Assembly (NCBI GenBank): GCA_046076065.1
Contig: JBJTRH010000041.1
Span: 1-51,509 of the forward strand
DNA: 51,509 bases
Source: Planctomycetaceae bacterium
Lineage (GTDB): Bacteria; Planctomycetota; Planctomycetia; Pirellulales; UBA1268
Reading direction: 5' to 3'
Shown here: one piece after another, positions 16,464 to 43,119 of the stretch
How positions within the stretch are numbered: position 1 is the first letter of the stretch
Layout of the letters: each line of letters begins with the position of its first letter
Program-made: the position numbers and the translations under genes
Notes under the pieces: model-generated
Seen by the model: only the letters and a program-made list of their open reading frames with translations
Told to the model about the DNA's origin: nothing
Database searches by the model: none

Positions 16464-16520
16464 CGGCGACGCCGCGAGGCGCTCCCTGCGAGCCGGCCTG
16501 TAGCGTAGCCTACGCGGGCC

Positions 16521-22899: not shown

Positions 22900-22950
22900 G
22901 CGGAGGCTGACGGCGGCGGGTGGCACCTGCCGGCCGCGAGGAGGACAGCA

Positions 22951-24324: not shown

Positions 24325-24413
24325 TGCGGAGGTCGGTTCATCATGGGCCTCCCCGTTTGACTACGTGGAGAGGTTGCCCCAGACTAAGCGGCTTCCTTGT
24401 GGCAGGCACATGC

Positions 24414-26195: not shown

Positions 26196-26203
26196 GAGGG
26201 TGC

Positions 26204-27427: not shown

Positions 27428-28466
27428 GCGGTGGTCCGGCCGTTTCGACGCCCAGTACGACAGACTCGTAGGCGTGCAGCGACGGCAGGCCGCCGGTGTG
27501 CAGAAACAGCACATTCTGGTCGGCCGTCCACAGGCCTTCGCGGGCCAGGCCGATGAGCCCTGCCATGATCTTCCCCGTGTAGATCGGGTCGAGCAGGATG
27601 CCCTCGGTGCGGGCAAGCATCCGGACGGCTTCCACCATGCCGTCGTTCGGCAGGGAATACTTCGGCTGCCAGTAGCCGCCGATGCAGCGGACCGCCTCCG
27701 GCGGAATCTCGATGCCAAGTTCGAGCAGGTCGGCCACGGCCTGAGCCTCGGCGCGGACGATGGGTATCTGATCGTGCGGATCCCGGCTCACGCCGATGCC
27801 GAGCAAGGGCACGTCGATGCGATTCCCCAGGAAGCCGGCGAGCAGGCCGCCATGCGTGCCTGAGCTGCCCGAGCCCACTACCACCGCGTCGAACGCCAGG
27901 CCCATCTCGAACCACTGCTGCTGCATCTCCAGCGCGCAGGCCGCGTAGCCGAGACCGCCGAGCGCGTTCGATCCTCCGGTGGGGATGATGTAGCCCGCGC
28001 GGCCCTCCGCGGCGAGTTCATCGGCCACCTCCTGCATGGCCTGCGACAGGCAGCTGCCGCCTGGCACGACGGTGACCGCTTCCACGCCCATGAGGCGGAA
28101 AAGGAACTGATTCCCGCTGGCGTCGATGCGATAGCTGCCCGGGATCCGTTCTTCGATGACGAATCGGCACTTCAGGCCCTCCTTGACGGCCGCCGCCAGC
28201 GTGAGGCGGCAGTGGTTGGACTGCGGTGCTCCCGCCGTGATCAGCGTGTCAGCGCCACGGGCCAGGGCATCGGCCACGAGGAACTCGAGCTTGCGGGTCT
28301 TGTTGCCGCCCGGGAACAGACCCAACATGTCGTCGCGCTTGACCCACACCCGAGGGCCCGAGCCACCCGGGCAACCCGCTGCCAAGGCCGCCGAGAATCG
28401 CGGTAGCGGCTCGATCGGGGTGACGAACGGCGTGTAGCGGCGTCGGGGAAAACTCGACAGGTCCAT
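27378..28466 (-). CDS. PLP-dependent D-cysteine desulfhydrase / ACC deaminase family protein
   Basis: 362 aa. Motifs KRDDMLGLFPGGNKTRKLEFLVADALARGADTLITAGAPQSNH (PLP lysine context) and GSGSSGTHGGL. Its 3' end overlaps the dipeptidase 3' end by 50 nt. Confidence 0.8.
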   Translation of the reverse strand: MDLSSFPRRRYTPFVTPIEPLPRFSAALAAGCPGGSGPRVWVKRDDMLGLFPGGNKTRKLEFLVADALARGADTLITAGAPQSNHCRLTLAAAVKEGLKCRFVIEERIPGSYRIDASGNQFLFRLMGVEAVTVVPGGSCLSQAMQEVADELAAEGRAGYIIPTGGSNALGGLGYAACALEMQQQWFEMGLAFDAVVVGSGSSGTHGGLLAGFLGNRIDVPLLGIGVSRDPHDQIPIVRAEAQAVADLLELGIEIPPEAVRCIGGYWQPKYSLPNDGMVEAVRMLARTEGILLDPIYTGKIMAGLIGLAREGLWTADQNVLFLHTGGLPSLHAYESVVLGVETAGPPLTAVRPPVTPAARCGS

Positions 28467-28517
28467 AGTCGTCTTCCGGCGGGAACGCGTGCGGCTGATT
28501 GGTCGTGTGCGATCGCA

Positions 28518-28538
28518 ACTTGTATATTATATTTGTTC
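28518..28538 (+). promoter_or_regulatory. AT-rich island in the divergent dcyD-family / pckG intergenic region (candidate promoter or operator)
   Basis: acttgtatattatatttgtt stands out from the surrounding GC-rich DNA. It lies about 60 nt upstream of the pckG ATG and contains TATATT/TATAtt-like hexamers. Confidence 0.3.
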
Positions 28539-28594
28539 GCCGCCTGTCATGCGGCGTGTGCATCGCACCATTCAGCCCGTGTGTCGCCGACCCC

Positions 28595-30427
28595 ATGTCC
28601 ACGAAACGCCGCGACGCCTCGATCCCGCTGAGCACCAACAAGCCCCTGCTGCGGTGGGTCAGAAAGATCGCCGAGCTTTGCAAGCCCGACGCGATTCACT
28701 GGATCGACGGCTCGCAGCGGGAGTACGACCTGCTTTGCGAGCAGATGGTCGCCGGCGGCACGCTCATCAAGCTCAACCAGAAGACCTGGCCCGGCTGCTT
28801 CCTGGCCCGCTCGGATGCCAGCGATGTCGCCCGAGTCGAGGAGCGGACCTTCATCTGCGCGCTTTCGAAGGAGGCCGCCGGCCCGACCAACAACTGGGTC
28901 GATCCCTTCGAGATGCGAAAGCGGCTCAAGGGCCTGTTCAGGGGATGCATGAGGGGCCGCACGATGTACGTGTTGCCGTTCAGCATGGGCCCACTGGGGT
29001 CGCCGATGTCGCAGATCGGCGTGCAACTCACCGACTCGCCGTACGCCGTCGTCAACATGCGGATCATGGCCCGCATCGGCAGGAAGGTTTTCAAGCTCAT
29101 CGATCACGATTTCAAGCGGGTCGTGCCCTGCGTGCATTCCGTCGGCGCCCCGCTCAGCAGGGGCCGGAAGGACGTCCTCTGGCCGTGCAATGCGGAAAAG
29201 TACATCGTCCATTTTCCCGAGACTCGCGAGATCTGGAGCTTCGGCTCGGGCTATGGCGGCAATGCGCTCCTCGGCAAGAAGTGCTTCGCGCTCCGGATCG
29301 CCTCCGCGATGGCTCGTGACGAGGGGTGGATGGCCGAGCACATGCTCATCCTCGGCATCGAGAATCCCCAGGGGAAGAAGATCTACGCGGCCGCAGCCTT
29401 TCCCAGCGCCTGCGGCAAGACCAACGTTGCGATGCTGATCCCGCCGCCGCATTTCCGGGAGCAAGGCTGGAAGGTCACGACGGTGGGTGACGACATCGCG
29501 TGGATCAAGCCTGATGCGCATGGCCGTCTGCGGGCCATCAACCCCGAGGCCGGATTCTTCGGCGTCGCCCCGGGCACCAGCGAGAAAACCAATCCCAATG
29601 CGATGAAGACGCTGTCCAGGAACACCATCTTCACCAACGTCGCCCTGACTGACGACGGCGGCGTGTGGTGGGAGGGCATGACGGACGAGCCGCCGGCGCA
29701 TGCGATCGACTGGCAGGGCAACGACTGGACGCCGGTGATCGCGTCGGAGAAGGGCACCAAGGCCGCCCATCCCAACGCCCGTTTCACGGCGCCAGCGAGC
29801 CAATGCCCCACGATCGACTCCGGGTGGGAGAATCCCGCAGGCGTTCCCATCAGTGCCTTCATCTTCGGCGGCCGCCGCGCGACAACCATGCCGCTGGTCT
29901 ACCAGGCGTTCAACTGGTCGGCCGGGGTGTACGTCGGTGCCACGATGGGCTCGGAGATGACCGCCGCCGCCGCGGGCACCATCGGCACGGTTCGCCGCGA
30001 CCCGATGGCGATGCTGCCTTTCTGCGGCTACAACATGGGCGACTACTTCCGCCACTGGATGAACATGCAGCGGAAGCTGAGCGAAACGCCGCGGATCTTC
30101 CACGTGAACTGGTTTCGCAAGGACGCAGACGGCGCGTTCATGTGGCCCGGATTCTCCGAGAACATGCGGGTCCTCGCCTGGATTTTCGATCGCGTACGGG
30201 CGGGAGGTCGGGCCCGCGAGACGCCGATCGGCTGGCTGCCCCGCTACAAGGACATCGACTGGACGGGCCTCGATTTTCCGGAGGAGAGGTTCGATGCACT
30301 ACAGGTGTTCGATCGTGCGGCCTGGCGGGCCGAGGTGCTGAGTCACGAGGAGATCTTCCTGGACCTCCACTCGCACCTGCCCAAGGAGCTTGTCTACGAA
30401 CGCGAACTCCTGATCTGCCGCATGTGA
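28595..30427 (+). CDS. pckG: phosphoenolpyruvate carboxykinase (GTP)
   Basis: In-frame ATG at 28595 within track ORF 28499..30427. Motifs [12 protein letters not shown] (kinase-1a), [17 protein letters not shown] and NWFRKD. Confidence 0.92.
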
Positions 30428-30512
30428 CGACGTGCGGCATGGCCGCTCACGGTATCTTCGTTCCGATCGCCGGTCATCGTGCCGGTGCTGTCATACCTCT
30501 TGCGAGGCCGGC

Positions 30513-31928
30513 ATGGTTTCGTCGACACCTGAGCAAACTATCGCCGCGCCGCACCCCACGGTCGCTTCCGGTGGCGACACATCGGCGCGACGGATCCTCC
30601 TCGGGCTGCTGCTCGGCGCGGTGCTGGGCTTGGGGGCCAACATGCTCCTGCGTCCCGGAGCGGCGGTCGATGGCGTGGCCGCCTGGGACAGCAATGGCGA
30701 CGGGGTGCACGATGGGCTCGACTGGTTCTGCCAGAACGTGGCCACGGTCGTCGGCCGGTTGTTTCTGCGGCTGATGGCCGTGGTGGTGGTTCCGCTCGTG
30801 GTATCGGCTCTCGCGCTGGCCGTGGTGGAGATCGGCGACCTGCGAAGGCTCGGCCGCATCGGCGTGCGCACGCTGCTGTTCAGCGGCATGCTCTCGGCGA
30901 GTGCCGTGCTGCTCGGGCTCACGCTCGTCAACGTGATCCGTCCCGGCGATGCGCTCTCAGCGGACGCGCGGCAGGCGCTCGTGGACCGCAACGCGGCGGG
31001 ATCGGCCGACGTCGCCCAGAAGGCGAGCAAGGCGAAGTCGGTTCGCGACATCGTGATCGACATGGTCCCGGAGAATCCGCTCCAGGAGATGGTCGGAGCG
31101 GTGGATGGAAGCTCGAAGGGCAACGGCATGCTGGCCGTGATGGTGGCGTCGCTGCTCCTTGGAGCTGCGCTCGCCGCGAAGCCCGACGAGTGCCGCGGCG
31201 TGATCGCCTGGCTCGAAGGCTTGAACTCGGTCGCCATGACGATCATCGGATGGGCGATGACGCTCGCGCCGCTCGGGGCGGGCTGCCTGGTCTTCTCCAT
31301 CGTGGCAACGCTGGGATTCGAGGTCCTCGTATCTCTGTTCTGGTTCACCCTCACCGTGATGGCGGGGCTCCTGCTCCAACTCGTCGTGGTCTATCCCCTC
31401 GTGCTCGCGCTGTTCAGCAAGGTGTCGCCGCGGGTGTTTTTCTCGGAGATTGCCGAGGCGATGCAGGTGGCGTTCGGCACGTCGTCGTCGAACGCCACGC
31501 TGCCCACGGCTTTGCGGGTGGCGGAACAGAATCTACGGTTGCCCCGGGAGAAGGCCCGCTTTGTGTTGACCGTGGGAGCGACCGGCAATCAGAACGGGAC
31601 AGCCCTCTACGAGGGGGTGGTGGTGCTGTTCCTCGCCCAGGTATTCGGGGTGCATCTGTCGCTCGCGCAGCAGGTCACCGTGGTCCTGATGTCGATCCTC
31701 GCGGGGATCGGCACGGCGGGCGTTCCCGGCGGATCCCTCCCGCTGATCGTGGTGCTGATGCGGTCGGTCGGCGTGCCCGGCGAGGGCATCGGGATCATCA
31801 TGGGCGTCGACCGTATTCTCGACATGTGCCGCACGGTCCTCAACGTCACGGGCGACCTCGTGGTGGCGACGTGCGTCTCCGGTGCGGCTGCGCATCCGGA
31901 TGGCGAGAGCTTCGCGCCAGGTGCATGA
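30513..31928 (+). CDS. dicarboxylate/amino acid:cation symporter (DAACS, GltP/SLC1 family)
   Basis: In-frame ATG at 30513 within track ORF 30432..31928. Multi-TM protein with AFGTSSSNATLP, NQNGTALYEGV and DRILDMCRTVLNVTGD motifs. Confidence 0.85.
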   Translation: MVSSTPEQTIAAPHPTVASGGDTSARRILLGLLLGAVLGLGANMLLRPGAAVDGVAAWDSNGDGVHDGLDWFCQNVATVVGRLFLRLMAVVVVPLVVSALALAVVEIGDLRRLGRIGVRTLLFSGMLSASAVLLGLTLVNVIRPGDALSADARQALVDRNAAGSADVAQKASKAKSVRDIVIDMVPENPLQEMVGAVDGSSKGNGMLAVMVASLLLGAALAAKPDECRGVIAWLEGLNSVAMTIIGWAMTLAPLGAGCLVFSIVATLGFEVLVSLFWFTLTVMAGLLLQLVVVYPLVLALFSKVSPRVFFSEIAEAMQVAFGTSSSNATLPTALRVAEQNLRLPREKARFVLTVGATGNQNGTALYEGVVVLFLAQVFGVHLSLAQQVTVVLMSILAGIGTAGVPGGSLPLIVVLMRSVGVPGEGIGIIMGVDRILDMCRTVLNVTGDLVVATCVSGAAAHPDGESFAPGA

Positions 31929-31970
31929 GTCGCCGGCATCCGCGTGCAAAAAACGACATATCGCGGGGTG

Positions 31971-31988
31971 AACGCCCAGCCGGGCGTT
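31971..31988 (+). terminator. short GC hairpin downstream of the symporter gene
   Basis: aacgccc-agcc-gggcgtt is a perfect 7-bp stem with a 4-nt loop, about 40 nt after the stop at 31928. No U-tract, so its function is uncertain. Confidence 0.3.
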
Positions 31989-32028
31989 GGGCCTTCGGGG
32001 GTGGGCTGATGGAACGTAGACTAGGGTC

Positions 32029-32739
32029 ATGAAACCATTTTCACAGGCAGGTAGTGCGACACGGTTTGCCCCCGTTGCGGTCGAGTCGCGGCGGGCACTG
32101 CGTCATGAGGTCGCCCGCTGCCTGCTGCTCGAGATTTTTCGCGGGAACGTGCCCGCCGGCACTCGGCTGATCACCCAGAAGCTTGCCAAGCAACTGGGTG
32201 TCAGTGCCACGCCGCTCCGCGAGGCGCTCGTCGAGCTCGAGTCGATCGGCATGGTCGAGATCAGTCACAACCGCGGCGCCGTCGCAGCGGCGTTCGGCCC
32301 CGCCGAGCTTCGCGGCATCTATCAGGTGCGTCGCGTGCTGGAGAGCGAGGCAGCCCGCTGCGCCTGCGGCCGCATCGACCGGGACTTGCTCGAGTCGTTC
32401 CACGCCGAGATGCTCGAGCATGCCGGCCGGCGTGTGAAATCCGCCGCATGGCTCAGGTCCGCAATGGCGTTCGATGCCCGATTCCATGCCTCGATCGCCG
32501 AGGCGTGCCAGAGCCCCAGGCTGGCCCGGGAGATCGATCGCCATGCGCTGCTCATGCAAACCATCAGCGAAGCCATCGGCAACGAGTATCACAGCAAGGA
32601 AGATGGCATCCAGGAGCACCTCGAGATCATCGACGCCCTGCTCGCGGAGGACGCAGATCGGTCGGCCCGTGCCATGGCGAAGCACATCGATGCCACGGCG
32701 AGCCGAGCGTTGGGCGTGATGTTCTCCGCGGCTCCTTAG
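32029..32739 (+). CDS. GntR family transcriptional regulator (FadR-type, FCD C-terminal domain)
   Basis: 236 aa. Winged-helix segment LITQKLAKQLGVSATPLREALVELESIGMVEISHNRG, followed by a helical FCD-like domain. Confidence 0.8.
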   Translation: MKPFSQAGSATRFAPVAVESRRALRHEVARCLLLEIFRGNVPAGTRLITQKLAKQLGVSATPLREALVELESIGMVEISHNRGAVAAAFGPAELRGIYQVRRVLESEAARCACGRIDRDLLESFHAEMLEHAGRRVKSAAWLRSAMAFDARFHASIAEACQSPRLAREIDRHALLMQTISEAIGNEYHSKEDGIQEHLEIIDALLAEDADRSARAMAKHIDATASRALGVMFSAAP

Positions 32740-32828
32740 CGGCCTCCCGCAGACGGGGGGCGTTCGCCATGTCGGCCGTACTTGTTGCGGCCACGTGCAT
32801 CGAAGGCTAGACTTTTCCCCGTGAGGCC

Positions 32829-32843
32829 AATATTTTATCGAAT
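32829..32843 (+). promoter_or_regulatory. AT-rich element upstream of the PEP-CTERM gene array (candidate -10 region)
   Basis: aatattttatcgaat lies about 80 nt upstream of the ATG at 32925 and is the only AT-rich patch in the 185-nt intergenic region after the GntR gene. Confidence 0.25.
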
Positions 32844-32924
32844 CCGAGCGGCGCCGATGGCTGCACGGTGTCGGGGCGATGGTTGCGCACGATTCTGCGG
32901 GGGTCGAAGAAAGGAGCGGGTGCG

Positions 32925-35366
32925 ATGCGAGACGGAGCGGCTCAACGATCGGCGATCGTCTGCGCTATCGTCCTCTCGGCGGCGATGCAGATGCGGGCGG
33001 ACGGCCAGGAGATCGTGACCTACGTCGGCGGCACCGGCGCGACCACCACAAGCCAGCAGAGCTGGACGCAGCCGGGAAACTGGACGTCGGGCTCCATTCC
33101 GTGCGGCCCGACGGTCTGGGCCCAGATCAATCCGGCGGGCGCGGCGGGATCGACGCTACGGATTCTGTACTCGTCGACGTCGCTGGCGGGATTGACGGGC
33201 ACGACGAACGTGCTGAGCGTCGGCGCGATGACATTTCCGCAGACGCTCGTGAGCGCGTCGACGACCTACTCGATCCAGAATAATGGCACCTCCGCCGGCA
33301 CCAAGGGCACGCTGAGGTTCTACGGCGTCGATACGACCATCGGTGGTCAGCCGCGAAGGGTGATCATCGACAACAGCACGACGCTCTCCGACGTCGCGTT
33401 CACCCAGACGAACCAGGGGCAGGAGTTCGAGCTCAACACGTCGGGGGTGATCAATGTCGCCGCGGGCACGCAACTCTCGCTCTCGACGATGGTCAGGCAG
33501 GACGGCACGGCGCGGTCGATCACGAAGGTCGGGAACGGCGTGCTCGCCTTCGCCGGCACCGGCAATCAATCGAGCCTCAGCACCTACACGGGCGGGTTCG
33601 TGCTCGAGGGCGGCGTCGTGCAGTGGGCGCTGAGCGGCACGGCGGCCTCTGGCACCCCGTTCGGAATCGGTTCGTTGACGCTGCGGAACGGCATCCTGCG
33701 GTCGACGGGCACGTCGGGCCGCTCCGTCAACGTGAGTGTCGTGCTCGACGGCACGGCGGAGATCGGGTCCACGTCCTCCGGGCTGACCGGTGGCATCACG
33801 GTGAACAGCGCCGGCGGCAGCCTGGCCACATCCGTGCGACGCGATAGCGTGCTAGCCATCGCGGATGGCCAGTCGACGACGTGGCACCAGGCCACGACCG
33901 GTTCCGGCGGGCTGACGAAGGCCGGTGGTGGTACCCTGCGGTTCTCCGGTGCCGGCGGCACGCTGGCGCACTCCGGCAGCACGGTCGTGCAGTCGGGCAC
34001 GCTGGTGATGGACGCGGTTCTGGCATCGCCGAGCGGCGCCACGATCCTGGCCGGGGCGGCGCTGCTGGGCTCCGGCACGCTCTCGAGTCCGACGACGATC
34101 TCCGGCAGCGCCACGCTTTCTCCCGGCAGCGGCGTGGGTGCCCTTTCGTTCGGGAACGTCACCTGGTCGCCGGGCGTCAACTACAACTGGCAGATTCAGT
34201 CGGGCACCGGCGGGGCAGGCAGCGGCTGGGATCTTGCTTCCGCCAGCGGCACCCTGGCCATCGCCGCGACGATCGGCAGTCCGGTAAAGCTCAACCTCTG
34301 GTCGGTGACGGGCACCACGCCCGACGTGACCGGTACCGCGACGGGCTTCGATCCCGCAGCGAGCAGCTACATCTGGCCCGTGGCCAGCGCGAACCGCGGG
34401 GTCACCGGCTTTTCGGCAGCCAAGTTCGTCATCGACACGTCCGCGGTCAACGGCACCGGTGGCTTCACCAACGACCTCGCCGGCGGTGCATTCAGCGTGG
34501 CTCAGATCGGGAACACGCTGGCGCTCGTGTTCACCTCAACGGCCTCCCGGCCCGTCATCACGATCGGCGTGTCCGGTACGCAGACCCAGGCCCAGACAGG
34601 TTGGCCGCTGCTGTCAGGCACTTACCCCCTGTTCAAGACGGGCACGGGCACGCTCGTGGTCGATCAGGCCAACACGATCACCGGGTCCACCGCCGTTCAG
34701 GCGGGTCGCCTCCAGTTGGCCAATGCAGCCGCGCTCGCCACTAGCCGAGTGGTGCCTCTGGCCGGCGGCACCGTGACCCTGTCGCCTGGGCTCACCACCA
34801 CCGTAGGCGGCCTGGATCCCAGTGCCGGCGGTCTCGTCGATGTCGGAAACGGGTTCGTGACGGTCACTGCGGGCCTGCCCGCCGCCGGCATGCTCGCGGC
34901 TCTGCTTGCCGGTCGCGGCGATGGCTCCTGGAACGGCACGACCGGGATCACGTCGTCTGCAGCGGCGGACGCCATCGCCAAGTCGCTGCCGCGGACGGTC
35001 GGCTGGCTCGACAATGGCGATGGCTCGGTCAGTTTCGCCTTCGCGGCATCGGGCGACACCAACCTCGACTGGAGCGTCGACATCCTCGATGCGGCCAACT
35101 TCTTCGCCGGCGGCAAGTACGACTCCGGCCAGCCGTCGTCGTGGATCGACGGCGATTTCAACTACGACGGCGTCGTTGACATCCTGGACGCCGCCGATTT
35201 CTTCTCGACCGGCCTGTTCGACGCCGGCGGCTACAACCCGCCTCCTGCCGGCGGGGCGGTCATGGCCGTGCCCGAGCCCTCGGTCGGCCTGGGGTGCCTG
35301 GCGGCCGTTGGAATCCTTGTGTGCCGGTGTCGGTTATCCAAGCCCAGATCGTTCGTCGAGGAGTGA
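32925..35366 (+). CDS. PEP-CTERM surface protein with autotransporter-associated beta-strand repeats and a dockerin-like pair (modules A+B)
   Basis: ATG at 32925, preceded by aaggag at 32911-32916. Signal peptide present. Repeats of the type TKVGNGVLAFAGTG / TKAGGGTLRFSGAGG / GTLVM. C-terminus has GDTNLDWSVDILD, GDFNYDGVVDILD and VPEPSVGLGCLAAVGILVCRCR. Confidence 0.8.
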   Translation: MRDGAAQRSAIVCAIVLSAAMQMRADGQEIVTYVGGTGATTTSQQSWTQPGNWTSGSIPCGPTVWAQINPAGAAGSTLRILYSSTSLAGLTGTTNVLSVGAMTFPQTLVSASTTYSIQNNGTSAGTKGTLRFYGVDTTIGGQPRRVIIDNSTTLSDVAFTQTNQGQEFELNTSGVINVAAGTQLSLSTMVRQDGTARSITKVGNGVLAFAGTGNQSSLSTYTGGFVLEGGVVQWALSGTAASGTPFGIGSLTLRNGILRSTGTSGRSVNVSVVLDGTAEIGSTSSGLTGGITVNSAGGSLATSVRRDSVLAIADGQSTTWHQATTGSGGLTKAGGGTLRFSGAGGTLAHSGSTVVQSGTLVMDAVLASPSGATILAGAALLGSGTLSSPTTISGSATLSPGSGVGALSFGNVTWSPGVNYNWQIQSGTGGAGSGWDLASASGTLAIAATIGSPVKLNLWSVTGTTPDVTGTATGFDPAASSYIWPVASANRGVTGFSAAKFVIDTSAVNGTGGFTNDLAGGAFSVAQIGNTLALVFTSTASRPVITIGVSGTQTQAQTGWPLLSGTYPLFKTGTGTLVVDQANTITGSTAVQAGRLQLANAAALATSRVVPLAGGTVTLSPGLTTTVGGLDPSAGGLVDVGNGFVTVTAGLPAAGMLAALLAGRGDGSWNGTTGITSSAAADAIAKSLPRTVGWLDNGDGSVSFAFAASGDTNLDWSVDILDAANFFAGGKYDSGQPSSWIDGDFNYDGVVDILDAADFFSTGLFDAGGYNPPPAGGAVMAVPEPSVGLGCLAAVGILVCRCRLSKPRSFVEE

Positions 35367-35370
35367 CTCC

Positions 35371-36339
35371 ATGCAACGTCGAGGCTTCACGCTCGTGGAA
35401 CTGCTGGTCGTCATCGCGATCATCGCGGTCCTCATCGGCCTTCTTCTTCCGGCCGTGCAGGCGGCCCGCGAGTCGGCTCGCCGGTCGTCGTGTCAGAACA
35501 ATCTCAAGCAGATCGGACTCTCGCTGCTCGGGCATCACGATGCCCGCAAGCGATTTCCCGGGGGCTTCCTCAGGAATGCGGACTACTCCGTCGGCACCTT
35601 CAATGGTCCCGGATGGGGGTGGGGCGCGATGATCCTGCCCCAGATCGAGGAGGCGACGCTCTTCGACAAACTTCGGCCCGCCAGTCGGGATCTCTCCACG
35701 GCCGCCGACATCGTCGCGCTGGCGCAGACGAGGGTGCCGGCGTTTCGCTGTGCGTCGTGCCCCGTGTCGTCGAACCTCAACGAAGCGTTGCCCGGCACGG
35801 CCACCGCGCCGGCGTTCTCGCTGTCGAACTACAAGGGCGTGTTCGGCGATCGCAACACGCAGGCCAAGTACAGCGACCTCGGCAACTGCCCGAACTTTGC
35901 CGGCAGTTGCATCGAGGGGGGCAACGGCATCTTCAGCCCCGGCACGAGGTCCACGGGCGTGAAGATGAAGGATATCACGGACGGTGCCAGCAAGACGCTT
36001 CTCGTCGGCGAAGTGCCGTACGGCCCCAACGGCGCCGAGAACTCGTCGGGCGGCCTCGTGTCGTACCGGGGTGCCGTCTGGGCGGGCGTGATCGCCCAGG
36101 CCGCCGAAAGCAACGTCGCGACCCACCAGACGCTGCGGGGCCTTCTCGCTTCCGGGGCCGCGAGCACCGAGTACATCCCCAACGGCACCAACAGCAATGC
36201 ATTCGGTTCGCACCACACGGCCGGCACCGGGTTTGTTCTGGCCGACGGCAGCGTGCGTTTGCTGACCAGTGCTCTCGACGCGGCCGTGCTCAACCGTCTC
36301 GCCGCCCGCGACGACGGCCAGGTCATCGACGCGTTCTGA
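35371..36339 (+). CDS. DUF1559 protein with prepilin-type N-terminal cleavage/methylation domain and H-X9-DG C-terminal motif
   Basis: In-frame ATG at 35371 within track ORF 34906..36339. N-terminus MQRRGFTLVELLVVIAIIAVLIGLLLPAVQAARESARRSSCQNNLKQIGL and C-terminal FGSHHTAGTGFVLADGSV. Starts 4 nt after the upstream stop. Confidence 0.85.
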   Translation: MQRRGFTLVELLVVIAIIAVLIGLLLPAVQAARESARRSSCQNNLKQIGLSLLGHHDARKRFPGGFLRNADYSVGTFNGPGWGWGAMILPQIEEATLFDKLRPASRDLSTAADIVALAQTRVPAFRCASCPVSSNLNEALPGTATAPAFSLSNYKGVFGDRNTQAKYSDLGNCPNFAGSCIEGGNGIFSPGTRSTGVKMKDITDGASKTLLVGEVPYGPNGAENSSGGLVSYRGAVWAGVIAQAAESNVATHQTLRGLLASGAASTEYIPNGTNSNAFGSHHTAGTGFVLADGSVRLLTSALDAAVLNRLAARDDGQVIDAF

Positions 36340-36362
36340 ACCGGTTGCCGCGGGGCCTCATC

Positions 36363-36818
36363 ATGTCATTGTCCCGAACACGACGAGCGCTCTTGCCGCA
36401 TCTGGGGTCGCTTGCCTTCCTTGCCGGATGCTTCGGGCCGCCTGCGTTGAAGTACGACATGATTCCCGTCGAGGGGATCATCACCCTCGAGGGCACCCCG
36501 CTGGTTGCGGCCGAGGTGATGTTCGATTCCGCGGATGGGCCTCGAGGGTTCGGGACCACCGACGAGTCGGGCAGATTCACGGTCATGACGAGGCAGTTCG
36601 GCGCAGGTCTGCCGGTGGGAACCTATCGAGTGATGATCGCCGGGTCGGAGCGGACGCGAGTCGCCCCGTCCGGCAAGCCCGTCAAACTCTCGCCCCGGTA
36701 TCGGGAATCCGGGGTTGGCAAGGCGACGATCGCAGTCGGAGGCGGACCGCTGCAGTTCGATCTCAAGAAATCTGCTGGGGCCGGCAGCGACGAGTCCGGC
36801 GATACGGCCGAACCCTGA
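36363..36818 (+). CDS. small lipoprotein (carboxypeptidase-regulatory-like beta-sandwich, typical DUF1559 neighbour)
   Basis: In-frame ATG at 36363 within track ORF 35490..36818. Lipobox LAFLAGC. Also GIITLEGTPLVAAEVMF...DESGRFTV...GTYRVMI. Confidence 0.6.
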   Translation: MSLSRTRRALLPHLGSLAFLAGCFGPPALKYDMIPVEGIITLEGTPLVAAEVMFDSADGPRGFGTTDESGRFTVMTRQFGAGLPVGTYRVMIAGSERTRVAPSGKPVKLSPRYRESGVGKATIAVGGGPLQFDLKKSAGAGSDESGDTAEP

Positions 36819-36853
36819 ACGACGAGACTCCAATCGAGCGAGGTTGACCATCC

Positions 36854-38500
36854 ATGAAGCGTTCCCTGTTTATCACGTTCGGGGCGGTGGCCGTTGCGGC
36901 TGTTGTCGCCCTGCATTCCCACCGCGCTGCGGCCCAGACGGTTTCGACGTTCCTCGGTGGCAGTGGCACCACGGAGCTGGCTCAGACCGGCTGGACCACT
37001 GCCGGCAACTGGAACACCTCAACCGTGCCCACGGGCACGGGCGTCTGGCCGCAAATCAACTCCAGCACGGCCACCGCACTGCGGGTCAACTACGGCAGTT
37101 CCGCGGTCGGTACGACGGGCACTCTCACGGTGGGTGCAATCTCGTTCCTGCCGACGCTCACCGTGGCGACCGGGAGCACGTACGAGTTTCGTAACAGCAG
37201 TTCGAGCCAGAGGGGTACCCTGCGGTTCTACGGCGTCGATACGACGGTGGGCGGCGTGCCGAGAAGGGTGATCCTCGACAACCGGACGGCACTCGGCGAC
37301 ATAGGGGTCAGTCAATCGAGCCAGGGCCAGGACTATGAGCTCTATACGTCCGGTGCGATCAACGTCGCCGCCAGCACGTCGCTCACGCTCTCGCCGTTGA
37401 TCCGCGATGGGAGCGGGTCGCGGTCGATCACCAAGGTCGGGCAGGGCGTGCTGTCGTTCGCCGGTGTCGGGTATGCGGCCACGACGACGAACAACTCCGG
37501 CTCGAGCACCTACTCCGGCGGCTTCGTCATGGACGGCGGGATCGTGCAGTGGGCCCTCAGCGGAACGGCCGGAGTCGGCACGCCCTTCGGCCTCGGAGCC
37601 CTGACGCTCCGCAGCGGAACCCTGCGATCGACGACCACGTCCGGACGCTCGATCAACTCCAGCGTGATCCTCGACGGCTTCGCGACGCTCGGCTCCGTGG
37701 ACAGTGGCTTCACGGGTTCGATCACGATCAACAGTTCGGGCGGTGCGCTCACAACGACGGTCGCCAGTGACAGCATTCTCACGGTCGTGGCTGGCGGATC
37801 GACGGCGTGGAACCAGGGGACGAGCGGAACCGGGAGCCTGACCAAGGCCGGGGCTGGGATCCTGCGATTCACCGGAGCCGGCGGAGCGCTCACCCACACG
37901 GGGAGCACGGTCGTGCAGTCGGGAACGCTCATCATGGCGGCCAACCTCTCGTCGTCGAGCCCCGTCTCGGTGCTGAACGCGGCAACGCTCCTCGGCACCG
38001 GCACGGTCGCCGGAGCGGCGTTGATTCAGGCAGGCGGTGTCTTCTCGCCGGGGGCGGTGAGCGGCACGGCGGGCGTGTTCACGTTTGGAAGCGGCGGGCT
38101 CGGCCTCGCGGGCCAGACGATCCTCGAGCTCTCGGGGACCTCTCGGGGCACGTCGTACGACGGCGTCAACATGGCTGGGGCACTCACCTACGGAGGCTCG
38201 CTCCTGCTCCAGTTCTCGGGCACGCTGCCGGAAGGGACGTACAACCTGTTCAGCGGCTTTGCCTCGCAGGTCGGCAGCTTCGCCTCGATCTCGGCCGCCG
38301 GCGGATACTCGGGCTCGCTGACGGAGGCATCCGGCGTGTGGAGCGGGACGTTTGGCCCCCAGACCCTCACGTTCACCAACGCGACGGGGGATCTCGTGAT
38401 CGTTCCAGAGCCTTCCTTGCTGCTCGCGGCGGGCGGGAGCCTTGCGATCGCCATCGGCGGCGTCGTACGCCGGCTGCGCGGTCCCCGGAGGGCGTCGTAG
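36854..38500 (+). CDS. PEP-CTERM surface protein with autotransporter-associated beta-strand repeats (module A paralogue)
   Basis: 548 aa with a signal peptide (MKRSLFITFGAVAVAAVVALHSHRAAAQ). Long near-identical stretches to 32925..35366, for example GTLRFYGVDTTVGGVPRRVILDN. C-terminal VPEPSLLLAAGGSLAIAIGGVVRRLR. Confidence 0.8.
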   Translation: MKRSLFITFGAVAVAAVVALHSHRAAAQTVSTFLGGSGTTELAQTGWTTAGNWNTSTVPTGTGVWPQINSSTATALRVNYGSSAVGTTGTLTVGAISFLPTLTVATGSTYEFRNSSSSQRGTLRFYGVDTTVGGVPRRVILDNRTALGDIGVSQSSQGQDYELYTSGAINVAASTSLTLSPLIRDGSGSRSITKVGQGVLSFAGVGYAATTTNNSGSSTYSGGFVMDGGIVQWALSGTAGVGTPFGLGALTLRSGTLRSTTTSGRSINSSVILDGFATLGSVDSGFTGSITINSSGGALTTTVASDSILTVVAGGSTAWNQGTSGTGSLTKAGAGILRFTGAGGALTHTGSTVVQSGTLIMAANLSSSSPVSVLNAATLLGTGTVAGAALIQAGGVFSPGAVSGTAGVFTFGSGGLGLAGQTILELSGTSRGTSYDGVNMAGALTYGGSLLLQFSGTLPEGTYNLFSGFASQVGSFASISAAGGYSGSLTEASGVWSGTFGPQTLTFTNATGDLVIVPEPSLLLAAGGSLAIAIGGVVRRLRGPRRAS

Positions 38501-38547
38501 TCGCTGCCCACGGGGTTGTGCATCCTTCATCGTCACGGAGCCGATCG

Positions 38548-39864
38548 ATGTGCCTGAGAAGCCCGATGCCCCGTGAAAAGGTGTTCGGTGCAATCGTGCT
38601 CGGTCTGCTGGTGGCGGTCCAGCCAGCTGCGCTCCGGGCCTGCACGACCGCGGTGATCACCGGCAAGGTGACCGCGGACGGCAGGCCGCTCCTCTGGAAG
38701 AGCCGCGACACGAAGAGCCTGCCGCGAAACGAGGTCGTGGTTTACGACGGCGGGAAGTACCGCGTGCTCGCCGTGGTGAACGCCGGCGATCGTGACGAGG
38801 TGTGGATGGGCGTCAACTCTGCTGGATTCTGCATCGAGAACTCGCTGAGTCGCGACCTGGACGTGCAGGGCGAGAAACGAGGGCCTGGCAATGGCGGCAT
38901 CATGAAGGTCGCGTTGGAGACATGCGCCACTGTGGCCGATTTCCGCGAACTCCTTCAGCGGACCAACGGCACGGGCCGCCGGACCGACGGCAACTTCGGC
39001 GTCATCGACGCCGTCGGCGGTGCTGCGCTCTTCGAGGCTGGTCCTCGGACATTCCGGATGTTCGATGCCAACGATCCGGAGGTCGCGCCGCGGGGTTACA
39101 TCGTGCGATCCAACTTTTCGACGACCGCACAGGGCGTGTCGCCGGCGCCCGACCCCGACAGCGTGGAGGGCACATACTCCGGGGATCGCTACGCGCGGGC
39201 ATGCGATCTGATCGATGGGCATCTGGGGGATGGCCTCGGTGTTGCCTACCTCCTGCGCCACGTCTGTCGGGACATGGCCGACGGCAGCGGGCGGCCATTC
39301 ACGGGAACTGTCAACGGCGCCCCTGGGAGCCTTCCGGGGGAGGTGAGCACTGCCGCCACGATCAGCCGCACGACGACCGTGTCGGCAGGTGTGTTTCACG
39401 GGGTGAAGCCGGGCGAGGATCCACGACTGACGACCATGTGGGTGCAGCTCGGAGACCCGAAGTTCTCGATCGCCGTGCCCTGCTGGGTCTTGTGCGAGTC
39501 GTTGAATGAGGCCGTCGCCGGTGAGAATGGCGGGGCGATTTGCTCAATTGCGACGACGCTTCGGGAGTGGAATCTTACCGAGGACCGCGATGGTGTTCGC
39601 ACCGAGCAGTTGCCCCAGGTCTGGGAGGACGTCTGGCCGGTGGAGGCCCGATTGATCGCCGCGGTCGAGAAGGTGCGGCAGCAGTGGGCCCTTTCCCCGC
39701 CCGGCCCGGACGACTACACGGAGACCCATCGGCATCTTGCCACGCAAGCGCTCGACGCGATGCGAGCCGAGTTGGAGGACATGAAGGAGGCGGCGCTGAG
39801 CCTTCCAGCGCCGCCGCCGCCGGTGTTTTCCCCATCATCCTCGGAGCCGGCGCTGGCGCCATGA
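38548..39864 (+). CDS. exported Ntn-hydrolase-like protein (peptidase C45 / C69 / choloylglycine hydrolase-like)
   Basis: In-frame ATG at 38548 (alternative at 38566) within track ORF 37807..39864. The signal peptide ends AALRA|CTTAVITGKVTADGRPLLWKSRD, exposing an N-terminal Cys, as expected for an Ntn nucleophile (or a lipobox Cys). Also MGVNSAGFCIENS, ALETCATVADFRELL and NFGVIDAVGGAALFE. The family call is by motif only. Confidence 0.6.
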   Translation: MCLRSPMPREKVFGAIVLGLLVAVQPAALRACTTAVITGKVTADGRPLLWKSRDTKSLPRNEVVVYDGGKYRVLAVVNAGDRDEVWMGVNSAGFCIENSLSRDLDVQGEKRGPGNGGIMKVALETCATVADFRELLQRTNGTGRRTDGNFGVIDAVGGAALFEAGPRTFRMFDANDPEVAPRGYIVRSNFSTTAQGVSPAPDPDSVEGTYSGDRYARACDLIDGHLGDGLGVAYLLRHVCRDMADGSGRPFTGTVNGAPGSLPGEVSTAATISRTTTVSAGVFHGVKPGEDPRLTTMWVQLGDPKFSIAVPCWVLCESLNEAVAGENGGAICSIATTLREWNLTEDRDGVRTEQLPQVWEDVWPVEARLIAAVEKVRQQWALSPPGPDDYTETHRHLATQALDAMRAELEDMKEAALSLPAPPPPVFSPSSSEPALAP

Positions 39865-40691
39865 CCACCACCATGCTTCCGCGGACTGTCGTCGTCTGCT
39901 GCGTGCTCGGGCTCGTGCTGGGCGGCGCAGCCGACCAGATCGCCGGTGCGGGCGACGAACGTGCGGTCGTGCGGGTCGCGATCTACGACGATTCGGCGGA
40001 AGCCGGCAAGGGCCCGGTGAACCTGCTGAGGATTCTGACGCCCGATGCCGGCTTTTCTTCGCGGCGGATCTCGTCTGGCGAGATCCGTCAGGGCATGTTG
40101 GCCGACTTTGACGTGCTGATCATGCCGGGCGGATCAGGCAGCAAGCAGGCGGAACGGCTCCAGGCGTCGGGCTGCGAGCAGATCCGCGATTTCGTGCGGG
40201 CGGGTGGAGGCTACGTGGGCATCTGCGCGGGGTCCTACCTGGCGAGTTCCCACTACGACTGGTCGCTGGGCCTGATCAACGCCCGCGTCTGGGATCGGGC
40301 CCACTGGGCGCGGGGTGGGGGAGATGTCTCGATCCGGATGTCCGATGCCGGGTGGCAGCTGCTGGGTCGAGGTGGCAGTGTACCCGTGCGATACAACCAG
40401 GGACCGCTCCTGGTTCCGGACGACGAGTCGGACCTTCCGGGCTACGAGGTACTGGCCACCTTCGAGACGGCGGTGGCCGACAAGGGCGCCCAGCCGGGGT
40501 CAATGGTCGGCACCCATGCCATCATCCGGTCGATGTACGGCCAGGGCCGCGTGATCTGCTACAGCCCCCATCCGGAGGCTGCGGGCGGGCCCAATGGCAT
40601 CATCGCGTCCGGCGTTCGCTGGGCGGGCGAGGGCCGCCCGGGACGAGCCGGCCGGCAGCCTGGAAAGCGGGCGAATCCGAGCCCCAGTTGA
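39861..40691 (+). CDS. exported class I glutamine amidotransferase-like protein (BPL_N-type domain)
   Basis: In-frame ATG at 39861 within track ORF 39540..40691, with an ATGA overlap with the upstream gene. N-terminal hydrophobic segment. Motifs VRVAIYDD, FDVLIMPGGSG and the nucleophile-elbow-like GGGYVGICAGSYLAS. Confidence 0.6.
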   Translation: MTTTMLPRTVVVCCVLGLVLGGAADQIAGAGDERAVVRVAIYDDSAEAGKGPVNLLRILTPDAGFSSRRISSGEIRQGMLADFDVLIMPGGSGSKQAERLQASGCEQIRDFVRAGGGYVGICAGSYLASSHYDWSLGLINARVWDRAHWARGGGDVSIRMSDAGWQLLGRGGSVPVRYNQGPLLVPDDESDLPGYEVLATFETAVADKGAQPGSMVGTHAIIRSMYGQGRVICYSPHPEAAGGPNGIIASGVRWAGEGRPGRAGRQPGKRANPSPS

Positions 40692-40752
40692 CCCCGAGAG
40701 AACCCGGTCGCGGCACCGGCCGTAGAACGGGACACCAGCCCTGAGCCCCTCG

Positions 40753-43119
40753 ATGCTCCCCCCACGATCGACCCGCCGCACGTCGCTCGCCGCCCTCGTC
40801 GTCGTGACGCTGGCCGCGCCTGCTGCAGCGGACGCACTCTCGTCAGGCTGGATCACGCTCGGCGGCGGCACGCAGACGCCCTACTACATCCGGACCACCT
40901 CGGTGCCAGGGCCGACGGTCATGGTCACCGGCGGCGTGCACGGCAACGAACCGGCCGGAGCCGCGGCCGCCAACCAGATCCGCACGTGGTCGATCACCAA
41001 GGGCACTCTGATCGTCGTGCCGTTCTGCGCGCCCCAGGCGCTCGACGCGAACACACGGGAGATCGCGGGTGAGGGCAATCTCAACCGTAACTTCCCCGGA
41101 GTCGGTGCCCCGATCACGGCCACGACGGGATCGACGGCGACGGCCCTGTGGGCCTTCGCCCGCCAGGTCATGCCCGGGTGGCACATCGACATGCACGAAG
41201 GCATCGGCATCGCCGGCGATGAAGCATCGACGTCGGTCGGGTCCAGCATCATTCACATGAATGAGTCGGTGACGAACTCGCAGGTCACGAAGATGCTCAG
41301 TGCCGTCAACGCGGGCATCACCGATCCCACCAAGAAGTTCTCGGACCTGGGCAGCACCGGCCCCATCGACACGAGCTTCGCTCGCGCGAGCGTGGCACAC
41401 CTGGGGGCGCGTGGCATGATCGTCGAGACCACCTCGACCGATCAGGTGCTCTCGCTGCGGGTCAATCAGCACCGGACGGCGGTCAGTCAGTTTCTCATGG
41501 ACCAGGGCATGATCGGCAGCGCGTTCGGCGGTCTGCGGAACGGGGTCGTCGACGAGTTCACGTTCGACGAGCCCGAGGGCTCGAGGCTCACGCAGGCCGG
41601 CAACTCCTATCCCAATGGCAATGCCTGGGACGTCTCGCCGTTCAGCACGCGGACCCAAGATGGCCTGTTGAAGATCCAACGCACACAGAGCGGCACGTCC
41701 ACAACGTCCACCGGCCTGCTCGGGGGGGGTGAGGTGCGGGTCCGGCGTGCCGGCGACACTGGCAACGTCGCCACGGACATCGGCGAGGGGTTTGCGACGA
41801 TGGTGGTCGACGGCTGGGATTTTCGCAGCACCCAGATCGGCGAGACGATCAGTTTCGGGTTCCGAAACGCCGTGTCTCCAACGGCCGAGGACACGGCGCA
41901 CATCGTGCTCAGGCGGACGGGGTTGGACGAGGTGTCGATCCTCGGGCAGGGATTCGGCACCGGCAGCGGCACGATCGGTTCCCAAGCCGTGTTTCGTGCC
42001 GTGCAGGACACGCCGGTGCAGTTCGTGCTCCAGCTCAACAAGCAGACCAACCTCAACGGCACGCCGCTGGTCTCCGGCGCCGCTGCGGGCGGCTACTACC
42101 GCGTCTTCTACCAGCCCCTCGGCCAGGACTTCGTCGAGGTCGGTAGCGGCGCGGCGGTGCGGCAGGATCGGAATGGCAATCATCTGACCATGCGGATTTC
42201 CGGGTCGATCGGCGCGAGCGGCGGTTCGTTCGACGTCGACCGCATGGCGTTCAGTTCGGTGCTTCCCGGACTGCTCGTTCCGCCATCCGCGCCCGGCGTC
42301 GTGAACCTGATGTGCACGACGGGCACGTTGACGCAGGGTCGGGCCGGTTTCCCATTTCTGTCGGGAACGACCAGGCTGGAGAAGACGGGCGCCGGCACGA
42401 TGGTGCTCGACGCCGCCAATGTGCTGACGGGGTCCACCACCGTCCTGGCCGGGAGGCTGCATCTGGCGAATGCGCTGGCCCTCCGCGCGAGTCGGGTCGT
42501 GCCGCTCGCCGGCGGCACCGTCTCGGTATCCGCCGGCCTGCAGACGATCGTCGGCGGGTTGGTCACCGACTCCGGCGGTCTGGTCGACCTGGGCAGCGGC
42601 ATGGTGACCGTTGCCGGTGGCCTCTCCGCCTCGAGCCTCGTCGACGCGATTCGGATGGGCAGGGCAGACGGGAGTTGGAGCGGAGCGCGGGGCATCACCT
42701 CCAACGCGGCGGCTGCGGCAGTCTCCCGGAGCGTCCCCCGCACGGTCGGCTGGCTTGACAACGGCGACGGATCGGTGACCGCCGCCTTCGCGGCAGCGGG
42801 CGACACCAACCTGGACTGGACCGTGGATTTGCTCGATGCCGCCAACTTTCTGGCGGGCGGCACGTTCGACGCGGGTTCGTCGGCGACGTGGAGCGAGGGG
42901 GATTTCAACTATGACGGCATCACGGACATTCTCGACGCCGCCGACCTGTTCTCGACGGGCTTGTACGATGCCGGCCCGTACAACGCGTCGGCCGGAGCCC
43001 CGTACGAGGTGAACGCGGTTCCCGAGCCGGCCAGCAACCTGATGGGCATCGCCTGCGCCGCATGCTGGGGGTGGGCCGCCTGTCGCAGGGTGCGCAGTCA
43101 TCGTCGACTCGTCAGTTGA
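40753..43119 (+). CDS. AstE/AspA-type (M14-like) zinc hydrolase domain fused to an unknown beta-rich middle region and the module-B repeat/dockerin-like/PEP-CTERM C-terminus
   Basis: 788 aa with a signal peptide. Motifs VMVTGGVHGNEPAG, GNLNRNFPG, WHIDMHEG and MIVETTS (zinc-ligand and catalytic-Glu contexts of the succinylglutamate desuccinylase/aspartoacylase family). The C-terminal ~260 aa is closely similar to the C-terminus of 32925..35366 and ends VPEPASNLMGIACAACWGWAACRR. Confidence 0.75.
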   Translation: MLPPRSTRRTSLAALVVVTLAAPAAADALSSGWITLGGGTQTPYYIRTTSVPGPTVMVTGGVHGNEPAGAAAANQIRTWSITKGTLIVVPFCAPQALDANTREIAGEGNLNRNFPGVGAPITATTGSTATALWAFARQVMPGWHIDMHEGIGIAGDEASTSVGSSIIHMNESVTNSQVTKMLSAVNAGITDPTKKFSDLGSTGPIDTSFARASVAHLGARGMIVETTSTDQVLSLRVNQHRTAVSQFLMDQGMIGSAFGGLRNGVVDEFTFDEPEGSRLTQAGNSYPNGNAWDVSPFSTRTQDGLLKIQRTQSGTSTTSTGLLGGGEVRVRRAGDTGNVATDIGEGFATMVVDGWDFRSTQIGETISFGFRNAVSPTAEDTAHIVLRRTGLDEVSILGQGFGTGSGTIGSQAVFRAVQDTPVQFVLQLNKQTNLNGTPLVSGAAAGGYYRVFYQPLGQDFVEVGSGAAVRQDRNGNHLTMRISGSIGASGGSFDVDRMAFSSVLPGLLVPPSAPGVVNLMCTTGTLTQGRAGFPFLSGTTRLEKTGAGTMVLDAANVLTGSTTVLAGRLHLANALALRASRVVPLAGGTVSVSAGLQTIVGGLVTDSGGLVDLGSGMVTVAGGLSASSLVDAIRMGRADGSWSGARGITSNAAAAAVSRSVPRTVGWLDNGDGSVTAAFAAAGDTNLDWTVDLLDAANFLAGGTFDAGSSATWSEGDFNYDGITDILDAADLFSTGLYDAGPYNASAGAPYEVNAVPEPASNLMGIACAACWGWAACRRVRSHRRLVS

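Follow-up and report, generated by a model that had tools for sequence, protein, structure and literature searches.

In the type IX secretion system (T9SS) of Bacteroidota, with its C-terminal domain (CTD), and in the LPXTG/sortase system, one C-terminal module is found on many unrelated secreted enzymes per genome, giving mosaics comparable to the one described here. PEP-CTERM/exosortase sorting is characterized by a signal peptide and, at the C-terminus, a VPEP motif, a hydrophobic helix of ~20 aa, and an Arg-rich cluster (Haft et al. 2006, as cited in a passage of PMC4960237). According to that passage, PEP-CTERM proteins occur in the PVC (Planctomycetes, Verrucomicrobia, and Chlamydiae) superphylum, and many paralogs carry the tail on different N-terminal domains. 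We analyzed a 51,509-nt stretch of DNA from an uncultured Planctomycetaceae bacterium (positions 1 to 51,509 of contig JBJTRH010000041.1, assembly GCA_046076065.1; the whole stretch is referred to as the window), in which three plus-strand genes, P1 (32925-35366, 813 aa), P2 (36854-38500, 548 aa), and P3 (40753-43119, 788 aa), encode proteins with a signal peptide and a PEP-CTERM-like tail that share modules in a mosaic manner. We consider it likely that these mosaic surface proteins result from an old duplication inside their gene cluster (module A, in P1 and P2) combined with a widespread portable cassette (module B, in P1 and P3), the whole being ancient and stably inherited.

The proteins were compared by BLASTP with composition-based statistics. 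P1 (aa 24-402) and P2 (aa 24-401) align in one colinear high-scoring segment pair (HSP) with 54.7% identity over 386 columns with 5 gaps (E 4.6e-122), and P1 (aa 550-789) and P3 (aa 523-763) align in another with 64.3% identity over 241 columns with 1 gap (E 8.5e-90). The N-terminal module common to P1 and P2 and the C-terminal module common to P1 and P3, both proposed in a first-pass annotation, are borne out by these alignments; the module coordinates proposed there are right within about 90 nt, and all the peptides quoted in it are found in the translations. At the DNA level, nt 381-1158 of the P1 gene and nt 360-1155 of the P2 gene are 70.2% identical, and nt 1711-2316 of the P1 gene and nt 1630-2235 of the P3 gene are 69.4% identical. 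A repeat search gives the same colinear pairs at 70-75% identity (33305-34099/37213-38025 and 34929-35228/42676-42975), and a weaker alignment continues past module B through the PEP-CTERM tails. No additional copy of either module is found by tblastn within the 51.5-kb window.

It should be noted that all three proteins have PATR repeats (Pfam, E 3.1e-9 in P1, and 4e-5 and 1e-6 in the other two) and are rich in Gly, Thr, Ser, and Ala, so that the shared similarity might be an artefact of low-complexity Gly/Thr/Ser-rich beta-helix repeats rather than colinear homology. Contrarily, each pair gives a single colinear HSP at E 1e-90 to 1e-122 even with composition-based statistics, and P2 and P3 give no BLASTP match to each other despite the presence of PATR in both. 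Self-comparisons of P1, P2, and P3 reveal neither internal repeats nor off-diagonal matches, which indicates that the similarity is colinear homology, and the module boundaries are kept across dozens of orthologs. After this formal alignment, the repeat-driven explanation, which was raised as a caveat when the modules were first proposed, has practically no chance of being correct.

Mapping of the window segments onto 240 homologs refines the anatomy of the three proteins. In P1, the signal peptide is followed by module A (aa 24-402, 32994-34130), module M (aa 403-549, 34131-34571), module B (aa 550-789, 34572-35291), and the tail (35268-35363). In P2, module A (36923-38056) is followed by module T, a conserved domain of ~115 aa (38057-38401), and the tail (38402-38497). 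In P3, an M14-clan catalytic domain (about 40834-41532) is followed by region X (aa 261-522, 41533-42318), module B (aa 523-763, 42319-43041), and the tail (43021-43116). The architectures initially written as A+B, A+short anchor, and enzyme+X+B hold as a mosaic of shared modules, but P1 also has M, and the "short anchor" of P2 is the conserved T domain. Module M, a beta-rich domain, is found in many other proteins, either as M+B or directly before PEP-CTERM. M may be a remote homolog of T (hhalign probability 24%, E 8e-4), and Pfam and NCBIfam give nothing meaningful on M or on the beta-rich, beta-sandwich-like region X. Module A is found only in the P1 and P2 families, in contrast to the widespread B, and its first ~110 aa are far more divergent than its core. 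Full-length P1 orthologs are 78-83% identical, P3 orthologs 57-89%, and the architecture of P2 recurs in some 30 clusters of orthologs, which are 530-578 aa long. In a freshwater metagenome run, Logan contigs match 32000-35089 and 35838-38721, each in one piece and with no differences, and cover P1 through most of module B as well as all of P2. These independent, error-free contigs indicate that the mosaic architectures are not an artefact of the contig analyzed here.

The age of the sharing was judged from silent sites. At four-fold sites of identical residues, the identity is 0.47 between P1-A and P2-A and 0.49 between P1-B and P3-B, where chance gives 0.38-0.40. The orthologs of the window and of a syntenic lineage, L006, are 0.48-0.60 identical at such sites, and the paralogs are therefore about equally saturated. 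Between P1-A and P2-A, the identity stays at or below 77% in every 90-nt segment of DNA, and exact matches extend over 22 nt at most. Relative to L006, no conversion tract is found in the window: the longest runs of other-paralog type comprise 4-7 of about 480 sites, against a background of 20%. Recent recombination or gene conversion within the locus might still have created or homogenized the shared modules, since the paralogs lie 1.5-5.4 kb apart on one strand, conversion between P1-A and P2-A occurs in a related lineage, and a contig with a P1::P2 hybrid gene exists (both described below). However, the DNA identity of ~70% in the window, the near-saturated synonymous sites, and the short runs given above all speak against a recent event, as do the ortholog clades with 100% bootstrap described next and the lack of any P1-P2 joint in four metagenome runs that contain this strain. 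We regard it as very improbable. The mosaic is old and, as far back as the cluster can be followed, stably inherited, and nothing recent is detectable in the window. The proposal of domain shuffling or recombination within one locus thus stands in that shuffling produced the architectures, but no such event is visible here, given the ~70% DNA identity, the conserved architectures, and the generic nature of B.

Separate phylogenies of modules A and B, as the first-pass annotation had suggested, were built; the A clades split by type, and the P1-B modules are interspersed with B modules of unrelated proteins. In the A tree, which holds 48 A modules, group I comprises the window and the four nearer lineages, and in it the P1-A modules and the P2-A modules each form a clade with 100% bootstrap. 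The P1-A and P2-A modules of the window pair in 0% of the bootstrap replicates. This separation indicates that the duplication of A predates the split of the window lineage from L006, L010, L011, and L012. These clades mark P1 and P2 as old paralogs that go back to a duplication within the cluster.

Module B consists of two parts. B1 (34572-34871 in P1) is a PATR beta-helix of ~100 aa, with PATR at aa 569-598 of P1. B2 (34872-35291) is a helical linker with an SWxGxxGITS motif, followed by two Asp-rich loops, GDTNLDWxVDxLD and GDFNYDGxVDxLD, in which the Asp positions are invariant. A phmmer search with B against 1.84 billion representative proteins gives 2404, 851, and 367 clusters at E<=1e-3, 1e-10, and 1e-30, respectively. 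Among the matches listed, 130 of 139 full-length copies of B end <=45 aa from the C-terminus (median 23 aa), and P[ED]P follows B in 113 of the 139. The proteins that carry B are 283-3579 aa long, and N-terminal to it they have, among others, FGE-sulfatase, sulfatase, GHL10, BNR sialidase-like, GH16, PL4, M14, phosphodiesterase, metallophosphatase, LTD, BNR_4, and PL8 lyase domains. Module B is thus a widespread C-terminal cassette on hundreds of proteins predicted to be secreted. In four metagenome runs, contigs on B have a several-fold higher depth than the flanking genes. Apparent joints between two B copies in metagenome contigs were considered as structural variants and discarded, as they have only 20-41 nt on the short side and are read as other B paralogs.

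In the B tree, the P3-B orthologs form one clade with 82% support, while the P1-B modules are interspersed with the B modules of unrelated proteins. P1-B of the window is 80-81% identical to its orthologs and 64-65% identical to P3-B of the window, no nearer to the latter than to many other B modules. Since B is generic in many proteins and P1-B is no closer to P3-B than to unrelated B modules, B does not appear to come from an exchange between P1 and P3.

Exchange events are found in relatives of the window. Four contigs of the Joint Genome Institute from different assemblies (L015-L018), found by a junction-specific pattern, are of normal layout and colinear with L012, to which they are about 95% identical. 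In their P2, 15 of 15 consecutive informative sites over about 52 nt are of P1 type, against a background of about 5% of 594 informative sites, and the protein changes from STTTGGRLIYNNVV to STGTSGRSIYTGVV. The cluster P0024 (41 member sequences) carries the same P1-type patch, whereas 17 other clusters have the L012 form. Judging from this pattern, the patch is a short gene-conversion tract from P1 to P2 that is polymorphic among close strains. The strain-to-strain variation that the first-pass annotation proposed to look for is therefore present in relatives, but no such tract is detectable in the window.

A 6.3-kb Logan contig (L013) has a single P1::P2 gene (2674-4695) between the GntR and C45-like genes. 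The hybrid stands in for P1, the DUF1559 gene, the lipoprotein gene, and P2 (5610-11992 in L012), corresponding to a 4.4-kb deletion, and the flanks are 94-100% identical to L012. The junction is located at the left edge of the P1-type tract of L015-L018, and the 512 nt of L013 to the right of this point match their P2 without a difference. This coincidence suggests that the hybrid is either a true deletion produced by homologous recombination or a chimera of the k=31 assembly that passed through a repeat of ~60 nt. The hybrid was dropped as direct proof of recombination and is given little weight, as related strains hold the P1-type tract at the junction.

Module B also varies among relatives. 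Six P3 ortholog clusters (P0129, P0133, P0136, P0138, P0139, and P0140) keep B1 without B2; their enzyme domain and X share 68-79% identity with those of the window, and a short GSGTV...LSPG segment replaces B2 before PEP-CTERM. P1-B of L012 shares 79-82% identity with B of proteins other than P1, compared with 68-73% for other P1 orthologs, the A modules of which are 71-84% identical to that of L012, and P1-B of L011 is 83% identical to B of P0027. Judging from these identities, the phylogenies of B and A disagree among P1 orthologs. In module A, an additional beta-helix unit of ~130 aa is found in P1 of L010, L011, and L012; L012 alone also has it in P2. Exchange therefore continues at low frequency in relatives, and none is seen in the window itself.

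The AlphaFold2 model of P1, with a predicted local distance difference test (pLDDT) score of 78.7 overall and mostly above 90 for aa 130-400, has a right-handed beta-helix across A and B1. The best PDB matches of the model in Foldseek are autotransporter passengers, namely Ssp (8e7f, E 1.7e-4), Ag43, IcsA, and pertactin. No autotransporter beta-barrel (12-stranded translocator) is matched by Pfam or NCBIfam, and the C-terminus of P1 in the model is a PEP-CTERM-like helix. The lack of a C-terminal beta-barrel suggests the lack of a self-export mechanism.

The N-terminal domain of P3, extending to about aa 260, is of the AstE/AspA type (PF24827, E 3e-12, 46.9 bits against a cut-off of 25). The model of this domain matches DoeB (6twm) and Csd4 (4wck), both at E about 1e-10, as well as MpaA (4axv) and carboxypeptidases in Foldseek. 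His63, Glu66, His148, Glu149, Arg102, Asn111, and Arg112 are invariant in 36 homologs, including the zinc ligands of the HxxE...H type. In roughly 90 homolog clusters, including metagenome-assembled genomes (MAGs) labelled Verrucomicrobia and Phycisphaerales, BPL_N and AstE-like domains are fused in a protein of ~500 aa. Here, BPL_N is a separate upstream gene: the BPL_N/class-I glutamine amidotransferase-like (GATase1-like) gene (39861-40691, plus strand; PF09825, E 1.3e-18) lies directly upstream of the AstE-like domain of P3 (40753-41532) as a Rosetta-stone pair. The fusion elsewhere suggests that the two products work together.

The tails of P1, P2, and P3 (VPEPSVGLGCLAAVGILVCRCRLSKPR, VPEPSLLLAAGGSLAIAIGGVVRRLRGPRR, and VPEPASNLMGIACAACWGWAACRRVRSHRR, respectively) are tripartite, comprising P-E-P, a transmembrane helix, and a basic cluster at the extreme C-terminus. 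In P1, the VPEP motif, the hydrophobic stretch, and an Arg/Lys cluster follow each other, and Pro783-Glu784-Pro785 are invariant in 46 homologs. The PEP-CTERM label of the first-pass annotation is right in that the motif is plainly present, but the scores are below the curated cut-offs of the hidden Markov models (HMMs), although 4 of 48 homologs do pass, at E<=1e-5. The tails suggest that the three proteins are secreted and anchored at the cell surface.

A search of the PDB with a B2 profile gives dockerins as the best matches, all below threshold; the top match is the type II dockerin of CipA (E 0.024), and at least 6 of the 15 matches at E<=10 are dockerin-bearing cellulosomal proteins. No cohesin is evident among the cluster genes, where no search aimed at cohesins was made.

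Taken together, P1 is A joined to a common M+B cassette, P2 is A joined to a different pre-anchor domain, T, and P3 is an M14-clan peptidase/deacylase joined to a beta-rich spacer and B. The modules may have been joined long ago by illegitimate or homeologous recombination, and purifying selection would have kept each architecture since. B, which is appended in the phylum to many different exo-enzymes and beta-helix proteins, is made up of a short stalk of PATR beta-helix, the helical linker, and the two Asp-rich loops resembling those of dockerins, with the PEP-CTERM sorting signal directly after them, and may tether the functional N-terminal part and space it from the cell surface.

Several points weigh against this picture. 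As to the surface location, PF07589 scores 16.4 (P1), 11.2 (P2), and 16.3 (P3) bits against a cut-off of 20.7, and TIGR02595 gives 14.7 for P1 against a cut-off of 16. No exosortase (EpsH family) is found among the window genes, and the anchoring route is accordingly one that we infer. As to the dockerin label, Dockerin_1 of Pfam (PF00404) scores 12.6 bits for P3 and 10.8 bits for P1, below the cut-off of 22.9, and the dockerin-like loops of P1 (aa 709-789) have a pLDDT below 50 in the model. As to the phylogeny, the trees are neighbor-joining trees on Kimura distances, not maximum-likelihood trees. The backbone supports of the B tree are 6-30%, and a sister relation of the P1 and P3 copies of B may still hold. 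The reciprocal monophyly of the colinear, same-strand P1-A and P2-A paralog clades in group I fails in the distant group II (P0015-P0017 and P0064-P0075, including P2 of L014), where the P1-like and P2-like A modules group together with 99.5% bootstrap. Such clustering is not predicted by a single ancient duplication without conversion, and could reflect concerted evolution, independent duplication, or a tree artefact.

The group II pattern leads to a further explanation, in which continual gene conversion keeps the A and B modules similar in every lineage, including that of the window, so that the identities of 55-64% understate their age. Besides the group II clade, in which P0017 groups with P0067/P0068 at 94.5% bootstrap, the conversion tract in L015-L018 and the B modules of P1 orthologs that resemble B of other proteins more closely than their own orthologous copies are consistent with such concerted evolution. 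The within-genome identities also fit: over six genomes, P1-A and P2-A are constantly 52-61% identical, while orthologs differ by up to 50% (P1-B and P3-B are 51-64% identical in the same genomes). On the other hand, the paralog clades of group I are cleanly apart at 100%, the only tract seen spans ~52 nt, the comparison of the window with L006 reveals no conversion, and P1-B and P3-B of the window are each nearest their own orthologs (80-83% against 64-68%). Concerted evolution acting throughout is, in our judgment, improbable, and we prefer the old duplication of A with the portable cassette B.

The mosaic proteins belong to a cluster of seven genes on one strand, in the order P1, DUF1559, small lipoprotein, P2, C45-like, BPL_N/GATase1-like, and P3, preceded by a gene for a GntR/FCD regulator (32029-32739, plus strand, assigned by Pfam). 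The gaps between the genes from GntR through P3 are very short or overlapping. The DUF1559 protein (35371-36339, plus strand; PF07596, E 6e-44, and N_methyl) has a prepilin-type N-terminus. The small lipoprotein (36363-36818, plus strand) is carboxypeptidase-regulatory-like (PF13620, E 1e-3, below threshold), and its position is kept in all syntenic loci. The gene at 38548-39864 (plus strand), the position of which is also kept in syntenic loci, encodes a homolog of C45-like N-terminal nucleophile (Ntn) hydrolases (NF040521, the NCBIfam model of the C45 autoproteolytic acyltransferase/hydrolase, E 5.1e-15, below the cut-off). This gene has no Pfam match, and a Cys is located near the predicted end of its signal peptide (…LRACTTAVITGK…).

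The same cluster with all three architectures is found in at least five other metagenomic lineages, L006, L010, L011, L012, and L014, with P1 45-83% identical to that of the window. In L006 (P1 82% identical), the cluster is accompanied by the GntR gene and the full upstream set of metabolic genes described below, and in L010 and L012 (about 61%), by the GntR gene and all or part of this set; the regulator gene adjoins the cluster upstream in these three lineages. In L011 (62%), most of the set is present but rearranged, and in L014 (GCA_036681025.1; 45-50%), none of it is seen on the contig; no GntR/FCD gene upstream of the cluster is seen in either of these two loci. A scan of genome contigs with P1 gave five loci only, none of them long and syntenic.

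The junction of P1 and the DUF1559 gene should also be noted. The start of the DUF1559 gene is 4 nt past the stop of P1 (35364-35373). In the relatives P0009, P0015, and P0016, the P1 stop is missing, giving a single P1-DUF1559 open reading frame (ORF), as at 10001-13786 of L010 and 1646-5968 of L014; the read-through in P0014 and in the L014 ORF is judged by domain content. These read-through ORFs are 1260-1440 aa long, and the (M)RRGFTLVELL leader directly follows the PEP-CTERM tail. In four freshwater metagenomes, the contig depth is 480-855x at 35072-35455 against ~15x in the flanks, with the peak at the region of the N-terminal methylation motif of DUF1559. This peak reflects the number of DUF1559 leader copies across the community.

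Upstream of the cluster, a block at 22900-32739 encodes an Asp/Glu racemase, a gamma-glutamyltranspeptidase, an M19 dipeptidase, a pyridoxal phosphate (PLP) enzyme, a GTP-dependent phosphoenolpyruvate carboxykinase (GTP-PEPCK), an SDF (dicarboxylate/amino-acid) symporter, and the GntR/FCD regulator. It precedes the cluster, wholly or partly, in L006, L010, L011, and L012. This block suggests a theme of peptide or glutamate utilization for the cluster, with D-Glu or gamma-glutamyl compounds as possible substrates. The planctomycetal character of the window is evident from the DUF1559, PSD4, PSCyt3, and PSD5 domains, the GC content of 65-78%, and the related loci from Planctomycetota MAGs. The first 21 kb and the last 3.5 kb have a GC content of 70-78%, compared with 65-71% over 22-47 kb, the stretch holding the cluster and the upstream metabolic genes. 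On the minus strand, 12867-17603 is one stop-to-stop frame of 1578 codons with a GntP permease and, after it, cytochrome c, PA14, PSD5, PSD4, and PSCyt3 domains, probably representing two neighboring genes in the same frame. A promoter and terminator scan gave 0 promoter-like sites, and fewer terminator-like sites than the shuffle mean.

Modular PEP-CTERM surface proteins with autotransporter-like beta-helices are already a familiar kind of system. What is new here is that B is delineated as a recurrent unit without its own model in the searched libraries, together with the conserved seven-gene cluster and the conversion tract in relatives. For the question of recombination, the outcome is largely deflationary, pointing to ordinary modular evolution rather than recent recombination at this locus. 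The case shows how planctomycetal surface proteomes are built from portable modules. No Pfam or NCBIfam model in the libraries searched covers the ~240 aa of B as a whole. Proteins with B are probable exo-enzymes of the cell surface, and an HMM built for B would make localization annotation in Planctomycetota metagenomes better. The seven-gene cluster, in most lineages near genes of peptide/glutamate catabolism, is a candidate for experimental study. Only tentatively, and with some doubt, do we suggest a more specific role, in which B serves throughout the phylum as an undescribed cassette for surface display (a beta-helix stalk, then the SWxGxxGITS linker and a Ca2+ module of dockerin-like type, with PEP-CTERM after it in every case) and the cluster is a surface-tethered machine for capture and degradation of peptides. 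There, B would possibly dock to a polysaccharide or to a partner resembling cohesin, either ahead of exosortase processing or following it, the peptides would perhaps be gamma-glutamyl or peptidoglycan-derived, and the beta-helices of P1 and P2 would be substrate-binding scaffolds for the M14-type enzyme and its C45-like and GATase1-like partners.

The likeness to described systems differs from part to part. With PEP-CTERM proteins, P1-P3 share the signal peptide and the tripartite tail, but they differ from the standard ones in the sub-cut-off HMM scores, in the conserved ~240-aa B that travels with the sorting signal, and in that no exosortase is seen. With type Va autotransporter passengers such as Ag43, pertactin, IcsA, and Ssp, they share the right-handed parallel beta-helix and PATR (PF12951/TIGR02601), and adhesin-like surface exposure of the beta-helix proteins, as in autotransporters, is likely. 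Unlike these autotransporters, they have a PEP-CTERM-like tail instead of the C-terminal beta-barrel translocator. P3 shares its fold and HxxE...H zinc ligands with M14-clan AstE/AspA deacylases and peptidoglycan-peptide carboxypeptidases (DoeB/EutE, Csd4, and MpaA), but unlike them, it is predicted to be secreted and is extended by a beta-rich spacer of ~260 aa and the B cassette.

As for the C-terminal cassette itself, the sequence and the sorting machinery of B/PEP-CTERM are unrelated to those of the T9SS CTD and LPXTG/sortase. B2 resembles the dockerins of cellulosomal enzymes and scaffoldins (the type II X-dockerin of CipA, 2b59/3kcp) in having two tandem Asp-rich loop-helix segments near the C-terminus of varied hydrolases. 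The similarity is, however, below threshold, and Trp takes the place in the first loop that Gly has in dockerins; we know of no cohesin partner for B2. B precedes a membrane-sorting signal, whereas the dockerin itself is the terminal anchor. B and dockerins nevertheless follow the same logic, that of a portable module placing enzymes at the cell surface.

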